From assembly GCA_016702555.1 (NCBI GenBank), contig JADJDV010000001.1, forward strand, positions 74,786-138,785: a stretch of 64,000 nucleotides of DNA. The letters run 5' to 3'. The notes beneath the pieces were generated by a model. That model had not been told where the DNA came from. It was given only the letters and a program-made list of their open reading frames with translations, and searched no databases. Shown one piece after another: positions 27,137 through 37,042 of this stretch (position 1 is its first letter; the number at the start of each line of letters is the position of its first letter). Source of the DNA: Burkholderiales bacterium (GTDB taxonomy: Bacteria; Pseudomonadota; Gammaproteobacteria; Burkholderiales; Burkholderiaceae_C). The position numbers and the translations under genes were made by a program.

Positions 27137-28396
27137 TGACCTGCCCCCATCCGCCATGCCAATGATTTGGTAGGAGTCCTGGGTTTGAAGATTACTGGAT
27201 CTCGTTGCTTGTAGTGGTGGGATGCCGAGGAGCATCGCCGGCATGCCGGCGATGCTCCTCGGCAAAGCGCGCGGGTGGCATCCGTCCGATGCTGCCGTGG
27301 GGCCTGACCTCGTTGTAATCGCGACGCCAGGCGGCAATGATGTTGCGCGCCTGGTGCAATGTCTCGAACCAGTGCTCGTTCAGGCACTCGTCACGAAACC
27401 GCCCGTTGAAACTCTCGATGTAGCCGTTCTGCATCGGCCGCCCTGGTTCGATCAGGATGTGTCTGATGCCATGGCCCTGTGCCCAGGCAATGAATGCCCT
27501 GCTGGTGAATTCCGGACCGTTGTCTGTCCGAACGGCCGACGGATAGCCGCGGAACAGGGCCGCTTGGTCAAGCAGCCGCGTCACGTACTGACCGCTGATG
27601 CCGTAGTCCACCGCGATGTCCACGGCCTCATGGCTGAAGTCGTCGGCCACGGTCAGGCACTTCAGGCGCCTGCCGTTGGCCAAACTGTCGCTGACGAAAT
27701 CCATGCTCCACACCTCGTTGACCCTGGTGGCAATGTTCAGCCCCATGCGCTCGGCTGGCGGCCTGCGAGCCTTCTTGCGCTTGCGCACAGCCAGGTTGGC
27801 GTCGCTGTACAGCCGGTACACCCGCTTGTGATTGACGCCGGGGAACTCCAGGCGCAACAGGTCGTGCACGCGTCGATATCCGAAGCGCCGGCGCGCGTAG
27901 GCGATCTCAACGATCTTCGACTTCAGCGCCTCGGTCTGCGCGCTGGCCTCCAGTGCGTTGCGATAGCTGTCTCGACTCAGCCCCACAAGCCTGCAGGCTC
28001 GCCGCTCGGACATCTGATGCTGATTGATCAACTGGCCGATGGCTTCCCGCTTGACCTGTGGGGCTAGCGCTTTACCGAGAACGCTCTTGAGCGCATGCAT
28101 GTCCAGATGCGCCTCGGCCAGCAGGCTCTTGAGCTTGGCGTTTTCCGCCTCCAGCTCGCGCAGCCGCCTCGCGTCCGACACCTCCATGCCGCCGAACTTG
28201 GCGCGCCACTTGTAGAACGTCGCGTCTGAAAAACCGCCCTTGCGGCAGATCTCCGCCACGGCCATGCCGGCCTCCGCCTGCTTGAGGAACCCGATGATCT
28301 GTTCCTCCGTGAACTTGCTCTTCCTCATGTCCGCCATTCTCCTGGTTGGCGGACTCCTGCTACTTCAGATTGGTACGGCTAGAGGGGAGCAGGTCA
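27137..28396 (-). mobile_element. IS3-family element (IS407-group-like)
   Basis: TG...CA ends, IRs TGACCTGCCCCC / TGACCTGCTCCCC; 4-bp TSD CGAC at 27133-27136 and 28397-28400; 1260 bp. Confidence 0.95.
27192..28328 (-). CDS. IS3 transposase, OrfA and OrfB fused in one frame
   Basis: MRKSKFTEEQII HTH plus WSMDF, TDNGPEF, QNGYIESFNGRFRDECLN. Confidence 0.92.
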   Translation of the reverse strand: MRKSKFTEEQIIGFLKQAEAGMAVAEICRKGGFSDATFYKWRAKFGGMEVSDARRLRELEAENAKLKSLLAEAHLDMHALKSVLGKALAPQVKREAIGQLINQHQMSERRACRLVGLSRDSYRNALEASAQTEALKSKIVEIAYARRRFGYRRVHDLLRLEFPGVNHKRVYRLYSDANLAVRKRKKARRPPAERMGLNIATRVNEVWSMDFVSDSLANGRRLKCLTVADDFSHEAVDIAVDYGISGQYVTRLLDQAALFRGYPSAVRTDNGPEFTSRAFIAWAQGHGIRHILIEPGRPMQNGYIESFNGRFRDECLNEHWFETLHQARNIIAAWRRDYNEVRPHGSIGRMPPARFAEEHRRHAGDAPRHPTTTSNEIQ

Positions 28397-28607: not shown

Positions 28608-28877
28608 TCAGCGACGCGGGTCGGATCCCGCCTGCGGCTGGCGCCGATTCAGCTCGAACGGCGACATGCTGAGCACCGACGTGAGCGCGCTGGAGACCAT
28701 CATCATGAACCAGAAGATGAAGAAAGTGACGGTGTAGACGGCCGCGCGCGACCAGCCCACGGTTTCGCCGAACAGGGTCAGCGACTCCGGGTCGAGCACG
28801 GCGAACACCATCATCTCCAGCACGGCGGCGACCAGAAACGCCGGCCAGGCAATCCACATCAGTCGCTCACGCAGCAT
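28608..28877 (-). CDS. Small membrane protein at end of cco cluster
   Basis: MLRERLMWIAWPAFLVAAVLEMMVFAVLDP, 2 TM; directly downstream of fixH. Confidence 0.75.
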   Translation of the reverse strand: MLRERLMWIAWPAFLVAAVLEMMVFAVLDPESLTLFGETVGWSRAAVYTVTFFIFWFMMMVSSALTSVLSMSPFELNRRQPQAGSDPRR

Positions 28878-28904: not shown

Positions 28905-29231
28905 TCATCGCGCGGGGCCGGGTGGTGCGGAGGCGGGCGCCGGCTTGACCACGCCGCCGGTCGCGGCGTGGTTGCGCGCCTGCATGGCCGGCGCCAGCCC
29001 GGATGGGCTGGCCGATGACTGAGCTGCCGCGTCGGCGGGCGGCAGCGAGGCCTGGGGGGAGCGGGGCGCATCGGAATACACCGGGTCGGGGTGGGTGATG
29101 GCCAGATAGAGGGTGACGAAGGACGCCAGCACCACGGCCGCCGGGCCGCCGACCACCAGCCACATCAGGCGATGCTTCCACCACGGCCCGGAATGGGATG
29201 ACGCGGAGGTGGGAGAGAACGACGCACTCAT
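28905..29231 (-). CDS. ccoH: FixH/CcoH-family protein (short form)
   Basis: PWWKHRLMWLVVGGPAAVVLASFVTLYLAITHPDPV; follows ccoG. Confidence 0.8.
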   Translation of the reverse strand: MSASFSPTSASSHSGPWWKHRLMWLVVGGPAAVVLASFVTLYLAITHPDPVYSDAPRSPQASLPPADAAAQSSASPSGLAPAMQARNHAATGGVVKPAPASAPPGPAR

Positions 29232-29238
29232 GCTTAGC

Positions 29239-30660
29239 TTACCTCGGCACCATGAAGATGGATTTCTCGCGCACGTCGCCGATGCCGGACGCCTGCACGC
29301 TGAAGCGGATTTCGTGCGAGCCCGGCTTGGCCGCGCCGTACGGCAGCTGCAGGCGCACCGGCACCCACAGGGACTGTGCGCCGTCGATGGTCACGCTCTT
29401 CTCGGTGACCAGTTGCAGCCCCGGCAGGCCTTCCGCGGCGAGCGTGTAGGTCTGCGGCTGCTCGGTGGCGTTCATGATCTGCAGACGGTAGACGTTCTCG
29501 ATCTGCCCACCGTCGACGATGCGCGCCAGCGTGGCGCGGTCGCGCACGATGTCGACCCGGAACGGCGTGCGCAGGAACAGGCTGGCGATCAGCGCGATGG
29601 TGACCGCCAGCAGGATGGCCGAATAGATCAGCACACGCGGGCGCAGCACGTGGCGCAGGATCTCGCGGCCGCCCCAGCCCTGCTCCAGCGCGTGCTCGGT
29701 GGAATAGCGGATCAGCCCGCGCGGGTAGCCGACCTTGTCCATCACCTCGTCGCAGACGTCGATGCAGGCGGCGCAACTGATGCATTCGTACTGCAGGCCA
29801 TTGCGGATGTCGATGCCGGTCGGGCACACCTGCACGCACAGCGTGCAGTTGACGCAGTCGCCCAGGCCGAGTTCCTTGTGGTCGGCGCGCTTGGAGCGCG
29901 CGCCGCGCGGCTCGCCGCGGCCGGCATCGTAGGTGACGATGAGCGTGTCCTTGTCGAACATCGCGCTCTGGAAGCGCGCGTAGGGGCACATGTACTTGCA
30001 CACCTGCTCGCGCATGAAGCCGGCGTTGCCGTAGGTGGCAAAGCCGTAGAAGAAGATCCAGAAAGTCTCCCACGGCCCGAGCGACCAGCTCAGCACGTGG
30101 CCGGCCAGCTCGCGGATGGGCGTGAAGTAGCCGACGAAGGTGAAGCCGGTCCACAGGCCGAACAGGATCCACACGACTTGCTTGCTGCTCTTGCGCAGCA
30201 GCTTGTTGGCCGACATGGGCGCCGCGTCCAGCCGCATGCGCGCCGAGCGGTCGCCCTCCAGCTTGCGCTCGAACCAGAGGTAGATCTCGGTGTACACCGT
30301 CTGCGGGCAGGCGTAGCCGCACCACTGGCGGCCAGCCACGGCGGTGAACAGGAACAGCAGCAGCGCCGAGATGATCAGGATGCCCGACAGGTAGATCACG
30401 TCCTGCGGGTACAGCACCAGGCCGAAGATGTAGAAGCGCCGCGCCTCCAGGTCGAACAGCATCGCCTGGCGGCCGCCCCATTGCAGCCACGGCATGCCGT
30501 AGAAGAAGATCTGGGTGGCGAAGACGAAGAACCAGCGCCAGCGCGCGAACACGCCGGTGACGCTGCGCGGGTAGATCTTCTTCTGCGCCTGGTACAGCGA
30601 CACCATCACCTCGTCGCCGGCGGCGGCGGCGGGTGTCTGGGTGGGGGTGGTTTTGCTCAC
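29239..30660 (-). CDS. ccoG: Cytochrome c oxidase accessory protein CcoG
   Basis: GRQWCGYACPQTV, CKYMCPY, 4Fe-4S motifs CVNCTLCVQVCP and CISCAACIDVC. Confidence 0.96.
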   Translation of the reverse strand: MSKTTPTQTPAAAAGDEVMVSLYQAQKKIYPRSVTGVFARWRWFFVFATQIFFYGMPWLQWGGRQAMLFDLEARRFYIFGLVLYPQDVIYLSGILIISALLLFLFTAVAGRQWCGYACPQTVYTEIYLWFERKLEGDRSARMRLDAAPMSANKLLRKSSKQVVWILFGLWTGFTFVGYFTPIRELAGHVLSWSLGPWETFWIFFYGFATYGNAGFMREQVCKYMCPYARFQSAMFDKDTLIVTYDAGRGEPRGARSKRADHKELGLGDCVNCTLCVQVCPTGIDIRNGLQYECISCAACIDVCDEVMDKVGYPRGLIRYSTEHALEQGWGGREILRHVLRPRVLIYSAILLAVTIALIASLFLRTPFRVDIVRDRATLARIVDGGQIENVYRLQIMNATEQPQTYTLAAEGLPGLQLVTEKSVTIDGAQSLWVPVRLQLPYGAAKPGSHEIRFSVQASGIGDVREKSIFMVPR

Positions 30661-30791
30661 AAGCAGCGGTCCGTGAGTGAAAGCTCAGGCGGCGAGTCTA
30701 GTGCCATGGCGATCACCCTCTCGGCGCACCGGTAAAACGCAGACACCCGCGGGTGTCGCCCAGCAACCGGGCACGCCGGCCCGGATGCACA

Positions 30792-32093
30792 TCACCCCAG
30801 GCTGACCTCGACGCGGCGCGCCTGCGCGCCGGCGCCGGCGTCGGTGTTCTCGGGCTTCTTCAGTTCGATGCTGTCCTCGGCCACGCCGAGCGCCTTGAGC
30901 TGATCGCGCACGGCAAAGGCGCGCTGCTTGGCCAGTTCCTCGTTCTGCGCCGCGTTGCCGCTCGAATCGACGTAGCCGCTGACGATGGCCTTCTTGCCCT
31001 GCTTCACGCCGGCGATCACCTCGGCCAGCGCGGTGTCGGCGCCGCTGGCCAGATCGGCCTTGCCGGTGGCGAAGAAGAACTTGACGACACCATTCTCGAC
31101 CGCGACCGAAGCCGCGTCGTTGCCGGCCGCAGCGGCGGGTGCCGCCGCAGCAGGCGCCGCCGCCGGGGTGGCGCCGGCCACGCCGCCGCCCTTGCCCCAG
31201 ACGTAGGCGGTCAGCACCTTCATCTGCTCGGGCGTGAACTTGGCGTCCCACGCCGGCATCACGCCGGTCTTGCCCTGGTTGATCATGTTGACGATGTGCG
31301 CCTCGATCACCGGGCCGTGCACGAACACGCCGGAGGTCAGGTCGGGCGCGCCGAGCGCCTGGTTGCCCTTGCCGTCGGCGCCATGGCAGGCCGCGCAGGC
31401 AACGAACTTGTCGCGCCCCAGGTTGGCGCGCACCGAATCGTGCGGCGCCTTGGCCAGGCTGAGCACATGGTGGGCCAGGTTGCGCACGTCGTCGGCACCG
31501 CCCACGGCGGCCGCCATCGGCGTCATCACGCCGGTGCGGCCCTTGGCGATGGTTTCATGGATCTGCTCGGGCGTGCCGCCCCAGTTCCAGTGGCCGTCGG
31601 TCAGGTTGGGAAAGCCGGTGCTGCCGCGTGCGTCGGAGCCGTGGCACTGCGCGCAGTTGTTCATGAACAGGCGGTCGCCGATGGCCATGGCCTGCGCGTC
31701 CTTGGTCAGCTCCTCGGTGCTCTTGCTGGCGAAGGCCGCATAGATCGGCGCCATCTGCTCATTGCCCTTGCTCACCTCGCGCTCGAACTGACCGGACTGG
31801 GTCCAGCCAAGCGAGCCGCCGTACGAACCCAGGCCCGGATACAGGTACAGGTAGGCCAGCGAGAACACGCAGGTAATGACGAACAGGCCCACCCACCAGC
31901 GCGGCAGCGGGTTGTTCATCTCGCGCAAATCGCCATCCCAGACGTGACCGGTGGTGTTGTCGGCGGCCGTCATGGCCTGGGTCTTGCCGCTGATCCACAA
32001 CAGGGCCAGGCAGCCGAGGATCCCCAGCAGCGTCGCGCCCGCGATGAAGATCGACCAGAAGTTGCTCGTGAAGTCGCTCGGAAAGTGGTTCAT
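30792..32093 (-). CDS. ccoP: cbb3-type oxidase subunit III with C-terminal OmpA-like domain
   Basis: GHVWDGDLREMNNPLPRWW, two CxxCH, then an Ala/Pro linker and FFFATGKA...GYVDSSG...NEELAKQRAFAV...RRVEV. Confidence 0.93.
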   Translation of the reverse strand: MNHFPSDFTSNFWSIFIAGATLLGILGCLALLWISGKTQAMTAADNTTGHVWDGDLREMNNPLPRWWVGLFVITCVFSLAYLYLYPGLGSYGGSLGWTQSGQFEREVSKGNEQMAPIYAAFASKSTEELTKDAQAMAIGDRLFMNNCAQCHGSDARGSTGFPNLTDGHWNWGGTPEQIHETIAKGRTGVMTPMAAAVGGADDVRNLAHHVLSLAKAPHDSVRANLGRDKFVACAACHGADGKGNQALGAPDLTSGVFVHGPVIEAHIVNMINQGKTGVMPAWDAKFTPEQMKVLTAYVWGKGGGVAGATPAAAPAAAAPAAAAGNDAASVAVENGVVKFFFATGKADLASGADTALAEVIAGVKQGKKAIVSGYVDSSGNAAQNEELAKQRAFAVRDQLKALGVAEDSIELKKPENTDAGAGAQARRVEVSLG

Positions 32094-32130
32094 TTTTGTT
32101 CCTTGCCTGCCAGGGCGTGTCCGTCGTGGC

Positions 32131-32268
32131 TCAGTCCTGCTCGAACGGCAGACGGGCCGCCTCGTCGAACCGCTGCTTGTTGCGGCTCGACCAGGCCCAG
32201 GCCACGATGCCGATGAAGACGAGGAGCGCCACCACGGTCACGATGCTGCGCAGAAGGTTGATGTCCAT
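32131..32268 (-). CDS. ccoQ: cbb3-type oxidase subunit IV
   Basis: Translated by hand: MDINLLRSIVTVVALLVFIGIVAWAWSSRNKQRFDEAARLPFEQD. Confidence 0.92.
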   Translation of the reverse strand: MDINLLRSIVTVVALLVFIGIVAWAWSSRNKQRFDEAARLPFEQD

Positions 32269-32289: not shown

Positions 32290-32907
32290 TTACCTGCGGT
32301 GAATGCCCAGCACCTGCAGATAGGCGATGACGGCATCCATCTCGGTCTTGCCCTTGAGGTCCTCGGGCGCCTTGGCGATCTCCTCGTCGCTGTAGGGCGC
32401 GCCCAGCGTGCGCAGACCGCGCATGTGCGCCTGGATGGTGCCGGCGTTGGCGGCGGTCTTCTCCAGCCACGGGTAGGCCGGCATGTTGGACTCGGGCACC
32501 ACGTCGCGCGGGTTGTTCAGGTGCACGCGGTGCCAGTCGTCGCTGTAGCGGCCACCGACGCGCGCCAGATCGGGGCCGGTGCGCTTGCTGCCCCACTGGA
32601 ACGGCCGGTCATAGACGAACTCGCCGGCCACCGAATAGGGGCCGTAGCGCAGCGCCTCGGCGCGGAACGGGCGAATCATCTGCGAGTGGCAGTTGTAGCA
32701 CCCTTCGCGCACGTACACGTCGCGCCCCACCACCTGCAGCGCCGTGTAGGGCTTGAGGCCTTCGATCGGCTGCGTGGTGGATTTCTGGAAGAACAGCGGC
32801 ACGATTTCGACCAATCCGCCGATGGAGACCACCAGCAGGATCAGCACGATCATCAGGAAGTTGTTGGTTTCGACCTTGGCGTGGCCGGTGATTTTTTCTG
32901 CTGCCAT
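32290..32907 (-). CDS. ccoO: cbb3-type oxidase subunit II
   Basis: [30 protein letters not shown]. Confidence 0.97.
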
Positions 32908-32926: not shown

Positions 32927-34369
32927 TCAGGCGTGTGCCGCGACCGCGGGGATCTGCACCTGCACCGCGCGGCCGGCCGTGATGGTCTTGAGCATGTTCC
33001 ACAGCATGATCACCATGCCGCCCAGGTACAGCAGACCGCCCAGCAGGCGCAGCACATAGAACGGATAGGTGGCCTTGACCGACTCGACGAAGGTGTAGGT
33101 CAGCGTGCCGTCGGTGTTGACCGCACGCCACATCAGGCCCTGCATCACGCCGGCGATCCACATCGCGGCGATGTAGACCACGATGCCGATGGTGGCGGTC
33201 CAGAAGTGCGCCTCGATGGCCTTCACGCTGTACATCTGCTTCTGGCCGAACAGGCGCGGCAGCAGGTAGTAGATGGAGCCGATGGTGATCAGGCCGACCC
33301 AGCCGAGCGCGCCCGAGTGCACGTGGCCCACCGTCCAGTCGGTGTAGTGCGACAGGGCGTTGACGGTCTTGATCGACATCATCGGGCCCTCGAAGGTGGA
33401 CATGCCGTAGAACGACAGCGACACGATCAAGAAGCGCAGGATCGGGTCGTCACGCAGCTTATGCCAGGCGCCCGACAGGGTCATGATGCCGTTCATCATG
33501 CCGCCCCAGCTGGGGGCCAGCAGGATCAGCGAGAACACCATGCCCACCGACTGCGCCCAGTCGGGCAGCGCGGTGTAGTGCAGGTGGTGCGGGCCGGCCC
33601 ACATGTAGGTGAAGATCAGCGCCCAGAAGTGCACGATCGACAGGCGGTAGCTGTACACGGGGCGCTCGGCCTGCTTGGGGATGAAGTAGTACATCATGCC
33701 CAGGAAGCCGGTGGTCAGGAAGAAGCCGACCGCGTTGTGGCCGTACCACCACTGCACCATGGCGTCCTGCACACCGGCGTAGGCCGAGTAGGACTTGAAC
33801 AGGCCGACCGGCAGCGCCGCGCTGTTGACGATGTGCAGCAACGCAATGGTCAGGATGAAGCCGCCGTAGAACCAGTTGGCCACGTAGATGTGCTTGACCC
33901 GGCGCGTGCCGACGGTGCCGAAGAACACCACCGCGAAGGCCACCCACACCAGTGCGATCAGGATGTCGATGGGCCACTCCAACTCGGCGTATTCCTTGCT
34001 GGTGGTGAGGCCCAGCGGCAGCGTGATGGCCGCGGCGACGATCACCGCCTGCCAGCCCCAGAAGGTGAAGGCGGCCAGCTTGTCGGAGAACAGCCGCACC
34101 TGGCAGGTGCGCTGCACCACGTAGTAGGCGGTGGCGAACAGGCCGCAGCCGCCGAAGGCAAAGATCACCGCGTTGGTGTGCAGCGGCCGCAGTCGACCGT
34201 AGCTGAGCCAGGGGATGCCAAGATTCAGTTCGGGCCAGGTCAGCTGCGCGGCGATGATCACGCCCACCAGCATGCCGACCACGCCCCAGACCACCGTCAT
34301 CACGGCAAATTGCCTCACCACCTTGTCGTTGTAGACCGTGGATTGCGTATTGGCGAATGTCATTTCCAC
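32927..34369 (-). CDS. ccoN: cbb3-type oxidase subunit I
   Basis: [44 protein letters not shown]. Confidence 0.98.
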
Positions 34370-34419: not shown

Positions 34420-34433
34420 TTGACGTTGATCAA
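34420..34433. promoter_or_regulatory. FNR box TTGAC-GTTG-ATCAA upstream of ccoN
   Basis: Near-consensus TTGAT-N4-ATCAA about 57 nt upstream of ccoN; overlaps the ccoS stop codon. Confidence 0.75.
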
Positions 34434-34567
34434 TCGTGCTCGAAAATCCGCTCACCCTCGCGATCGACGTCGTCGAATTGGCCACGGTAGATCGCCCACC
34501 AAAGCGCGCCCAGAATGAAGAACACCAGCACGACGGAAAGCGGGATCAGCAGGTACAGAATGTCCAT
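34430..34567 (-). CDS. ccoS: cbb3 oxidase maturation protein CcoS
   Basis: Translated by hand: MDILYLLIPLSVVLVFFILGALWWAIYRGQFDDVDREGERIFEHD. Confidence 0.92.
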   Translation of the reverse strand: MDILYLLIPLSVVLVFFILGALWWAIYRGQFDDVDREGERIFEHD

Positions 34568-36897
34568 CAGGCCTCCTCGTGCCGTTCGCTGGCATCCGCC
34601 AGGCGCCAGGCGTTGAGCACCACCAGCAGCGAACTGGCCGCCATGCCGAGCCCGGCGAGCCAGGCCGACACCCAGCCCATCATCGCCAGCGGCACGCCGA
34701 TCGCGTTGTAGCCAGCCGCCCAGGCGAGATTTTGCCGCACGATGCGCAGGGTACGGCGCGCCTGGCGTTGCGTCGCCGCAACTTGCATCAGGCGTTCACT
34801 GGGCAACACGAAGTCCGACTGCGCGCGCGCCAGCGGCACCGAGCGCCCGAAGGCAAACGACACGTTGGCGCCGGCCAGCACCGGCCCGTCGTTGAGGCCG
34901 TCGCCGACCATCGCCACGCGCGCGCCGGCCGCCTGCGCCTGGCGCAGCGCGGCCAGCTTGTCGGCCGGCGTGCAGCCGCCACGCGCCTCGTCGATGCCCA
35001 GGCGCTGGCCCACGCGCTCGGCGGCTTGCGGCTGGTCGCCCGACAGCAGGCGCACGCGCAGGCCCTGCGCGTGCAGCGCGTCGACGGTGGCCTGCGCATC
35101 GGGGCGCAGTTCCTCGCGGAACTCGAAGCTGGCCAGCCAGCCCTGGTCGTCGCTCAGGTGGCTGGCCGGGCCATCGGTCGGCATCGGGCCCAGGCCGCAG
35201 AAGCTGGCCGAGCCCAGCCGCAATTCGGTGGTGCCGGCACCGGTGGCCAGCGCGCCGATCACGCCCTGGCCCGGCACTTCGCTCACAGCCGTCAGATGTG
35301 CGGCGGCATCACGGGCGACCTGCTCGTCGTCGGCGGCACGCACCAGTGCGCGCGCGATGGGATGCAGGCTGCCGCGCGCCAGCTCGGCCGCCCAGGCCAG
35401 CGCCTGCGCGCGCGCGACGCCATGCCGCAGGCGCAGCTCGGCCAGCACGAAGGCATCGCGCGTCAGCGTGCCGGTCTTGTCGAACACCACGGTGTCGATC
35501 TCGGCCAGTTCCTCCAGCGCCTGCAGGCGCCGCACCAGCACGCCACGGCGCGCCAGCGCGCCGGCGCTGGCCAGCATGGCGGCCGGTGTGGCCAGCGACA
35601 GCGCGCACGGGCAGGTGACCACCAGGATCGCCACCGCGATCATCAGCGCGCGCCCCGGGTCGGTCGGCCACCACCAGGCGCAGGCCAGACCAGCGGCCAG
35701 CAGCACGAAGATGAGGAAGGGCTTGGCCAGCCGGTCCGCCAGTTGTGCGATGCGCGGCTTGGCCGTCGAGGCCCGCTCCATCAGCGCCACGATCTGCGCG
35801 TAGCGCGTGTCGGCGCCGATGCGCTCGACGCACACCGCCACCGGCGCCGTCAGGTTGTGGCTGCCGGCGATCACCGGCGCGCCGACGCCGCGCGCCAACG
35901 GTGTCGATTCGCCGGTGAGCAGCGCCTCGTCGACCGAGGTGTGGCCGTCCTGCAACACGCCATCGGCCGGAAACGCCTCGCCCGGCAGCACGCGGATCGC
36001 GTCGCCGGGCCGCAGCCGGCGCACCGACACGCGCACCCATTCGCCGTCGTCGGCGCGGCGCAGCACGCTCTCGGGCAGGCGGTGCATCAGCGCCTCCAGC
36101 GCGCCGGCGGTGCGGTCGCGCAGGCGCAACTCCAGCCAGCGGCCGGTGAGCAGAAAGGCCACGAACATGGTCAGCGAATCGAAGTAGACCTGGTGGCCGA
36201 ACACGCCCTGCGGCTCGAAGGTGCCGAGCGTGCTGACCACGAAGGTGATCAGCATGCCCAGCGCCACCGGCAGGTCCATGCTGACGCGGCGCAGCCGCAG
36301 ATCAAGCAGCGCGTTGGCGAAGAAGGGCCGGCAGGAGAACAGCACCACCGGGATCGACAGCAGCCATTGCGCCCAGCGCAGCAGGTGGATGATGTCGGCG
36401 TCGATCTCGCCCGGCCCGGTGAAGTATTCCGGCGCCGCATACATCATCACCTGCATGGTGCACAGCCAGGCCACGCCCAGGCGCCACATCATCTTGCGCG
36501 TCTCGGCCTGGCGACGCGCGCTGCCCATGGCGTCGTGCGCCGGCAGCGGGCGATAGCCGCTGCGCAGCACCGCCTCCATCCAGCGCGAGGGCACGGTCGC
36601 GCCCTCTTCCCACACCACGCGGCCGCGGTGGCTGGCGGCATTGACCTCGGCCTCGCGCACGCCGGGGCTGGCGCGCAGCGCCTGCTCGATGGTGACCGCG
36701 CAGGCGGCGCAGTGCATGCCCTCGAACACCACCGTCGATTCCCAGTGCGTGCCCGGCCCCTGAGCGTCGGCACCGCCTTGCGGGCGGCTGAACTCCAGCC
36801 ACTCGTCGCGCTCGTCGAGCAGCGCGAACGCACCCGACGCGCGCGCGGGCGCGGGCAGCGTGGGAGACACCGAAGGGATCACAGCCTCGCCTTGCAT
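34567..36897 (-). CDS. ccoI: Heavy-metal P1B-type ATPase CcoI/FixI
   Basis: GMHCAAC, TGES, CPC, DKTGTLT, GDGLND. Start approximate. Confidence 0.93.
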   Translation of the reverse strand: MQGEAVIPSVSPTLPAPARASGAFALLDERDEWLEFSRPQGGADAQGPGTHWESTVVFEGMHCAACAVTIEQALRASPGVREAEVNAASHRGRVVWEEGATVPSRWMEAVLRSGYRPLPAHDAMGSARRQAETRKMMWRLGVAWLCTMQVMMYAAPEYFTGPGEIDADIIHLLRWAQWLLSIPVVLFSCRPFFANALLDLRLRRVSMDLPVALGMLITFVVSTLGTFEPQGVFGHQVYFDSLTMFVAFLLTGRWLELRLRDRTAGALEALMHRLPESVLRRADDGEWVRVSVRRLRPGDAIRVLPGEAFPADGVLQDGHTSVDEALLTGESTPLARGVGAPVIAGSHNLTAPVAVCVERIGADTRYAQIVALMERASTAKPRIAQLADRLAKPFLIFVLLAAGLACAWWWPTDPGRALMIAVAILVVTCPCALSLATPAAMLASAGALARRGVLVRRLQALEELAEIDTVVFDKTGTLTRDAFVLAELRLRHGVARAQALAWAAELARGSLHPIARALVRAADDEQVARDAAAHLTAVSEVPGQGVIGALATGAGTTELRLGSASFCGLGPMPTDGPASHLSDDQGWLASFEFREELRPDAQATVDALHAQGLRVRLLSGDQPQAAERVGQRLGIDEARGGCTPADKLAALRQAQAAGARVAMVGDGLNDGPVLAGANVSFAFGRSVPLARAQSDFVLPSERLMQVAATQRQARRTLRIVRQNLAWAAGYNAIGVPLAMMGWVSAWLAGLGMAASSLLVVLNAWRLADASERHEEA

Positions 36898-36934
36898 AAG
36901 CCGCGCGACTTTAGGCGCTTTGCCTTGCAAGGGC

Positions 36935-36948
36935 TTGACTACCGTCAA
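36935..36948. promoter_or_regulatory. FNR-type box TTGAC-TACC-GTCAA
   Basis: Perfect palindrome between the divergent ccoI and usp genes. Confidence 0.6.
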
Positions 36949-37042
36949 GAGTCGCAGCCGCACGTCTGGTTAAGGTATCGTTGCGCTTGCTGTGCACATT
37001 TATGCGAACGGCAGTCAACGAATCAACCACAGGAGAAACACC

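Follow-up and report, generated by a model that had tools for sequence, protein, structure and literature searches.

Why should the gene for subunit III of a cbb3 oxidase, CcoP, continue past its second haem domain into a domain of the OmpA type, and what might such a domain do for the enzyme? The question is raised by the ccoP gene of the window, by which we mean the whole analyzed stretch of 64,000 nucleotides from a Burkholderiales bacterium. The gene consists of a single open reading frame (ORF) of 433 amino acids, with no internal stops and no frame changes (Table 1). Motif mapping placed YVWGKGG, which ends the second haem domain, at residues 297 to 303 (window 31205-31185), GYVDSSG at residues 373 to 379 (30977-30957), and AKQRA at residues 388 to 392 (30932-30918). 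An earlier note on this DNA had described a frame running from YVWGKGG through an Ala/Pro linker into an OmpA_C-like domain of about 105 amino acids, and the ORF, the motif positions, and the Pfam matches all agree with that description. A long antisense ORF (30753-32216, forward strand) was taken for a shadow of the ccoP frame, caused by the high GC content, and set aside.

The first 303 residues of the gene product are a true CcoP with a complete dihaem core. NCBIfam model TIGR00782 (ccoP) matched residues 46 to 304 with 255.4 bits, against a cut-off of 179.95, and Pfam identified FixP_N (PF14715) at residues 45 to 91 with 80.9 bits as well as two Cytochrome_CBB3 domains. The haem motifs are located at residues 147 to 151 (CAQCH) and 233 to 237 (CAACH), and the Cys and His of both CxxCH motifs are invariant across 42 homologues. 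In a full-length AlphaFold2 (AF2) model, built with 42 homologues, helices were predicted at residues 11 to 37 and 65 to 84, and a Foldseek search with the CcoP part of this model matched 3mk7_C (E value of 2.3e-20, TMt of 0.64, 41% identity) and 8smr_G. With these canonical dihaem CcoP/FixP proteins (TIGR00782; Pseudomonas stutzeri 3MK7 chain C and P. aeruginosa 8SMR chain G), the window protein shares FixP_N and the membrane anchor, two CxxCH cytochrome c domains, and the ccoNOQP operon. However, canonical CcoP stops at about residue 303, and the window protein has about 130 residues more, made up of a linker and an OmpA_C domain. The statement that canonical CcoP has no OmpA domain was borne out by the solved structures and by 198 of the 201 genomes sampled in the family, and unfused homologues end 6 to 15 residues past YVWGKGG. 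A precedent for a functional C-terminal extension is the trihaem CcoP of Neisseria gonorrhoeae, whose additional domain, the third haem c domain of the protein, diverts electrons (PMC8552683). Unlike that domain, the extension in the window has no haem motif and a predicted wall-binding fold.

The fused gene, ccoP-ompA, lies within a normal ccoN-ccoO-(ccoQ)-ccoP-ccoG cluster, and the small ORF in the ccoQ position gave no NCBIfam matches. When the whole genome (3.77 Mb, 99.5% complete) was searched in six frames, no second CcoP was found; therefore, the fused protein must be the working subunit III of the sole cbb3 oxidase. Downstream of ccoG, at a site where one might expect a FixH/CcoH-like gene, there are two small membrane-protein ORFs of 89 and 108 amino acids (28608-28877 and 28905-29231, both on the reverse strand) without NCBIfam matches. 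Just past the cco cluster, and adjoining a surface-protein gene, a 381-amino-acid ORF (27192-28337, reverse strand) has an IS3-family transposase-like sequence.

Table 1. Features of the ccoP-ompA locus, parts of its product, and other genes carrying the same C-terminal module. Positions are those of the window unless a contig or locus is named.
Feature	Location	Strand	Evidence or remark
ccoP-ompA fusion gene	30792..32093	-	single 433-aa ORF plus stop codon; Pfam and NCBIfam matches
Residues 1-95, N-terminal membrane helices and FixP_N	31809..32093	-	PF14715; AF2 helices
Residues ~125-213, first cytochrome c domain	31455..31721	-	PF13442/PF00034; CAQCH; Foldseek match 3mk7_C
Residues ~220-303, second cytochrome c domain, ending YVWGKGG	31185..31436	-	Pfam; CAACH; Foldseek
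Residues 304-328, Ala/Pro-rich flexible linker	31110..31184	-	AF2 pLDDT; 84% GC
Residues 329-433, short OmpA_C/Pal-like module (Asp376, Arg391, RRVEV)	30795..31109	-	PF00691; AF2; Foldseek
ccoG, downstream accessory gene	29239..30660	-	TIGR02745, 510.4 bits
45-aa ORF in ccoQ position	32131..32268	-	between ccoO and ccoP; named by position only
ccoO	32290..32907	-	TIGR00781, 306.6 bits
ccoN	32927..34369	-	TIGR00780, 789.9 bits
ccoS, upstream assembly gene	34430-34567	-	TIGR00847, 50.1 bits
ccoI-type copper P-type ATPase, upstream assembly gene	34567-36963	-	TIGR01511 and TIGR01525
Membrane H+-pyrophosphatase (HppA) with module	G000:C1:52067-54550 (L002), ~20 kb before window start	+	H_PPase, 917 bits
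aa3 oxidase subunit II (CoxB) with module	G000:C7:696987-698621 (L004:346-1968)	+	COX2_TM, COX2, cytochrome c domain
One-helix anchor, 184 aa	G000:C4:144433-145000 (L003)	-	
YidB-like protein with module	C6:589293-590603 (L005), own genome	+	
PufC-module loci	L070 (G087), L071 (G171), L072 (G008), L074 (G068)		
CcoP-OmpA fusion, other Burkholderiales family	L058, G592:C56:9615-10946		
CcoP-OmpA fusion, other Burkholderiales family	L060, G520:C1:1482950-1484359		

Within the linker, residues 308 to 325 have AF2 pLDDT values below 50 and model as disordered. Across 21 species, the linker is hypervariable and ranges from 13 to 36 amino acids; in the two hosts compared, its median length is 24 residues in CcoP and 29 in a one-helix anchor protein described below. 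Medians this close give no sign that the linker makes up for differences in the height of the host protein, as might be expected if it had to span a fixed distance. The module that follows matched OmpA (PF00691) at residues 340 to 412 with 41.5 bits (E value of 1.7e-10), above the gathering score of 27.2, and covers positions 1 to 77 of the 98 in the profile, being shorter than classical OmpA_C domains. The C-terminal domain was folded with confidence in the full-length AF2 model, and a model of the module by itself had a pLDDT of 85 and a pTM of 0.76. By Foldseek, the modeled module superimposed on the Pal structures 4g4w, 2hqs_G, 9uu2, and 1oap with TM scores of 0.73 to 0.76 and rmsd values of 2.1 to 2.7 Å, and on Pal, OmpA-C, and TagL with TM scores of 0.73 to 0.78. 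The best structural neighbors were all peptidoglycan-binding OmpA_C domains, with TagL, YiaD, OprF-C, and MotB also among the top matches, and the closest solved relative by sequence was the TagL domain of the type VI secretion system (7bba, 5m38). The match above the gathering threshold and the Pal-like fold in AF2 and Foldseek identify the extension as a real OmpA_C-type domain, as the earlier note had supposed.

That note had also held that the Asp of GYVDSSG and the Arg of AKQRA, the pair used for peptidoglycan binding, are kept in the extension, and this proved true well beyond the window: Asp376 and Arg391 do not vary among 32 modules taken from four kinds of host, align with the Asp and Arg of TagL, and have the canonical spacing of 15 residues. 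The same spacing separates Asp271 and Arg286 of Acinetobacter baumannii OmpA, which bind diaminopimelate (PMC12108004). Besides the Asp/Arg pair, the module shares the fold and the RRVE strand with the C-terminal domain of Pal and OmpA (PF00691). However, Pal and OmpA have their anchor in the outer membrane, whereas the module of the window hangs from an inner-membrane respiratory enzyme and represents a shorter, Burkholderiales-specific subfamily. Following the periplasmic haem domains of CcoP, the module sits in the periplasm.

CcoP is one of five proteins of this genome that carry the linker plus module. In the membrane H+-pyrophosphatase HppA, a C-terminal Ala/Pro linker leads into a module that shares 65% identity with that of CcoP. 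A one-helix protein, in which a short acidic N-terminal stretch precedes a single membrane helix, the linker, and the module, has a copy with 61% identity. Modules 45% identical to that of CcoP are found in CoxB, the gene of which is followed by coxA, and in a YidB-like protein with a membrane helix and a long Ala/Pro linker. These paralogous copies score 37 to 63 bits against PF00691. The module constitutes a distinct subfamily, since none of the ordinary Pal and OmpA-family proteins encoded in the genome reaches 25 bits against it.

The same architectures extend beyond this genome. CoxB with the module occurs in other genera (L073, L081), DUF937 versions of the YidB-like fusion occur in other families (L059, L061-L063, L075), and the stand-alone one-helix anchor is conserved family-wide. 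In four genera of the family, the module is fused to PufC, the tetrahaem cytochrome of the photosynthetic reaction center (CytoC_RC, 457 to 478 bits). The subfamily was detected in 96 of 201 genomes of the family, chiefly on H+-pyrophosphatase and the one-helix protein. At the level of the order, 47 of 401 genomes have it; outside the family of the window, it was found in only one of the roughly 400 genomes drawn from the class as a whole. At an E value of ≤1e-10, 497 relatives of the module were present in a library of 1.84 billion representatives, and the best 150 of these were mostly proteins of 160 to 260 amino acids; this library is clustered at 50% identity, which hides fused hosts, and it yielded chiefly small stand-alone anchors. 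Some small relatives (P0121, P0124, P0136, and P0139; 300 to 640 amino acids) contain the module two or three times in tandem, an arrangement that would suit multivalent wall binding.

Inner-membrane proteins whose C-terminus faces the periplasm make up most of the identified hosts, and the majority of them belong to energy-converting complexes; each membrane-protein host that was identified bears the module at such a C-terminus. The C-terminus of H+-pyrophosphatase we take to be periplasmic by established topology, and the cytochrome c domain of CoxB and PufC likewise put the module on the periplasmic side. Altogether, the sequence comparisons suggest an anchor cassette specific to the Burkholderiales that has been fused repeatedly, the module of CcoP being one copy of it.

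Two arrangements of a different kind were also observed. In L065 (G055:C34) and L083 (G116:C13), open frames of approximately 490 to 630 amino acids that continue downstream, the module is N-terminal, directly after the signal peptide, which differs from the C-terminal fusions. In L069 (G136:C213:6842-10219), a stop-free frame of 1126 amino acids encodes an aconitase, a cytoplasmic protein, with the module about 200 residues further on; this frame may reflect a lost stop or an assembly error in a 550-contig draft and not a real fusion.

One of these fusions has been described before. An H+-pyrophosphatase with a C-terminal OmpA-like domain was noted in Paucibacter sp. and other Burkholderiales, its role being left open, in a PeerJ review of 2024 (PMC11210485). 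That fusion involves the same cassette as in CcoP, on another inner-membrane proton pump, and the oxidase and reaction-center fusions are absent from the account given in the review. Literature searches for OmpA-like domains fused to CcoP, to cbb3 or cytochrome oxidase, or to PufC found nothing; on that basis the pyrophosphatase fusion is already known and the CcoP fusion is apparently without a prior paper. Proteins with the fusion are annotated merely as "cbb3-type subunit III," which makes the feature invisible in databases.

What, then, might the module do on CcoP? We consider it probable, at roughly 70%, that it makes CcoP a non-covalent tether of the inner-membrane cbb3 oxidase to peptidoglycan, with binding ascribed to it by homology. 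The N-terminal helices would hold CcoP in the inner membrane, and the chain would leave the periplasm-facing second haem domain through the disordered Ala/Pro spacer of approximately 25 residues, which would let the Pal-like domain reach the wall. There, the site formed by Asp376 and Arg391 most likely binds the diaminopimelate of peptidoglycan stem peptides non-covalently, so that the oxidase would be tied to the sacculus in the manner of MotB or TagL/TssL. The cassette exists as a stand-alone one-helix inner-membrane protein and has been fused repeatedly to the periplasm-facing C-termini of H+-pyrophosphatase, the CoxB of aa3 oxidase, PufC, and CcoP. Candidate effects of such a tether are a restricted diffusion of the oxidase, its placement beside other anchored pumps, or a staple between the inner membrane and the wall.

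The layout of an inner-membrane anchor, a linker, and a peptidoglycan-binding domain is shared with MotB/PomB and TagL/TssL. However, those proteins anchor a stator or a secretion machine, whereas the cargo in the window would be a terminal oxidase subunit, and the window protein has no plug or regulatory segment. Its membrane part is CcoP, which is not homologous to MotB or TssL and places the protein outside those families. The likeness to the MotB/TssL tethers may thus be read as a functional analogy only.

OmpA_C domains such as that of MotB are known to dimerise, and in one alternative the module mediates protein-protein contacts instead of peptidoglycan binding, either by dimerising with the modules of H+-pyrophosphatase, CoxB, and the one-helix protein to cluster complexes or by contacting an outer-membrane or periplasmic partner. 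The presence of a common module in five proteins of one genome would fit such contacts, as would the tandem copies in some small proteins and the dimerisation just mentioned. However, the diaminopimelate-binding residues, which a pure protein-protein role would not need, are invariant in every copy, and the structural neighbors ranked best are all peptidoglycan binders. We regard this alternative as unlikely, although it is the one that survives best.

The properties of the linker bear on a further alternative, in which CcoP would serve as a vehicle for export and membrane delivery and the linker would be cut after export, yielding a free periplasmic OmpA-like protein and an untethered oxidase. 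A disordered and hypervariable linker would be open to proteases, and a module without its own signal peptide needs a carrier. Nevertheless, the genome already has a dedicated one-helix, membrane-anchored module, which makes a second delivery route unnecessary, and the fusions recur specifically on energy-converting membrane proteins. Cleavage of this kind therefore seems to us a somewhat poorer prospect than protein contacts.

The distribution of the fusion within the genus of the window is uneven. Among 49 species genomes, the fusion is present in 23, with the alignment interrupted at the linker in two of them; another 21 encode an ordinary CcoP of about 305 to 320 amino acids, and 5 have no CcoP match. 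In the family sample, composed of 201 genomes with one per genus and a second from the genus of the window, the CcoP fusion was found in three genomes, namely, both from the genus of the window and one from another genus. The CcoP-OmpA architecture recurs in about 80 protein clusters of public genomic and metagenomic origin, at identities down to 59%, and the named members among them are Ottowia sp. In a phylogeny of the CcoP core, at least four changes are needed to account for the fusion, and well-supported branches force at least two of them. A fused protein of 428 amino acids has unfused relatives of 304 amino acids that are 86% identical. Since close relatives with an unfused CcoP are common, the anchor is dispensable for cbb3 function.

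Such turnover, together with the close unfused relatives, could be expected of a neutral or decaying accretion of a domain without function. However, in codon alignments of 21 species, the median dN/dS of the module (104 codons) was 0.157, compared with 0.172 for the CcoP core, at a dS of about 0.85; purifying selection acts equally on both. The fused genes of 23 species showed neither stops nor frameshifts, and the fusion also recurs on a distant CcoP lineage. Neutral accretion is thus highly improbable, and the anchor is gained or lost easily, yet conserved where present.

The distant lineage consists of two CcoP-OmpA fusions in another Burkholderiales family, in small genomes of 1.8 to 2.6 Mb, with cores that are 48 to 50% identical to that of the window and have insertions of their own. 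Because this lineage is fused as well, the module joined CcoP in more than one lineage. A tree of the module (111 columns) was poorly resolved and does not name the donor of the CcoP module, and a topology in which all CcoP modules form one clade remained acceptable in the approximately unbiased (AU) test (p = 0.218). Since the module tree cannot count fusions, recurrence is argued from the CcoP-core tree and the distant CcoP lineage. The last alternative, that an assembly or sequencing error joined ccoP to a separate downstream OmpA-family gene, is effectively ruled out. The identical in-frame fusion is present in 22 further species of the genus and in about 80 protein clusters from metagenomes, and the assemblies concerned are independent, ranging from complete and draft genomes to metagenome contigs. 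As a separate gene, the module would have neither start codon context nor a signal peptide; the clean, in-frame junction read from the DNA at the outset accordingly stands.

Overall, the proposed role of a tether between the oxidase and the wall is consistent with the predicted fold, with the conservation of the binding residues, with the periplasmic location of the module, and with the purifying selection on it. This idea is directly testable, because sister species with and without the fusion occur in nature and removal of the module would leave the catalytic part intact.

Respiratory complexes of the bacterial inner membrane are commonly regarded as free to diffuse. A conserved and selected putative wall anchor on the sole cbb3 oxidase of this organism argues for deliberate immobilization or positioning of the enzyme, or for a stapling of the inner membrane to the wall, and the case is strengthened by the presence of the cassette on the aa3 oxidase, the reaction-center cytochrome, and H+-pyrophosphatase. 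A broader and decidedly tentative reading is that Burkholderiales pin the cbb3 oxidase, the aa3 oxidase, the reaction center, and H+-pyrophosphatase to the sacculus by means of one mobile cassette. If this were true, proton pumping and the entry of periplasmic electrons would take place at fixed, not freely diffusing, sites.
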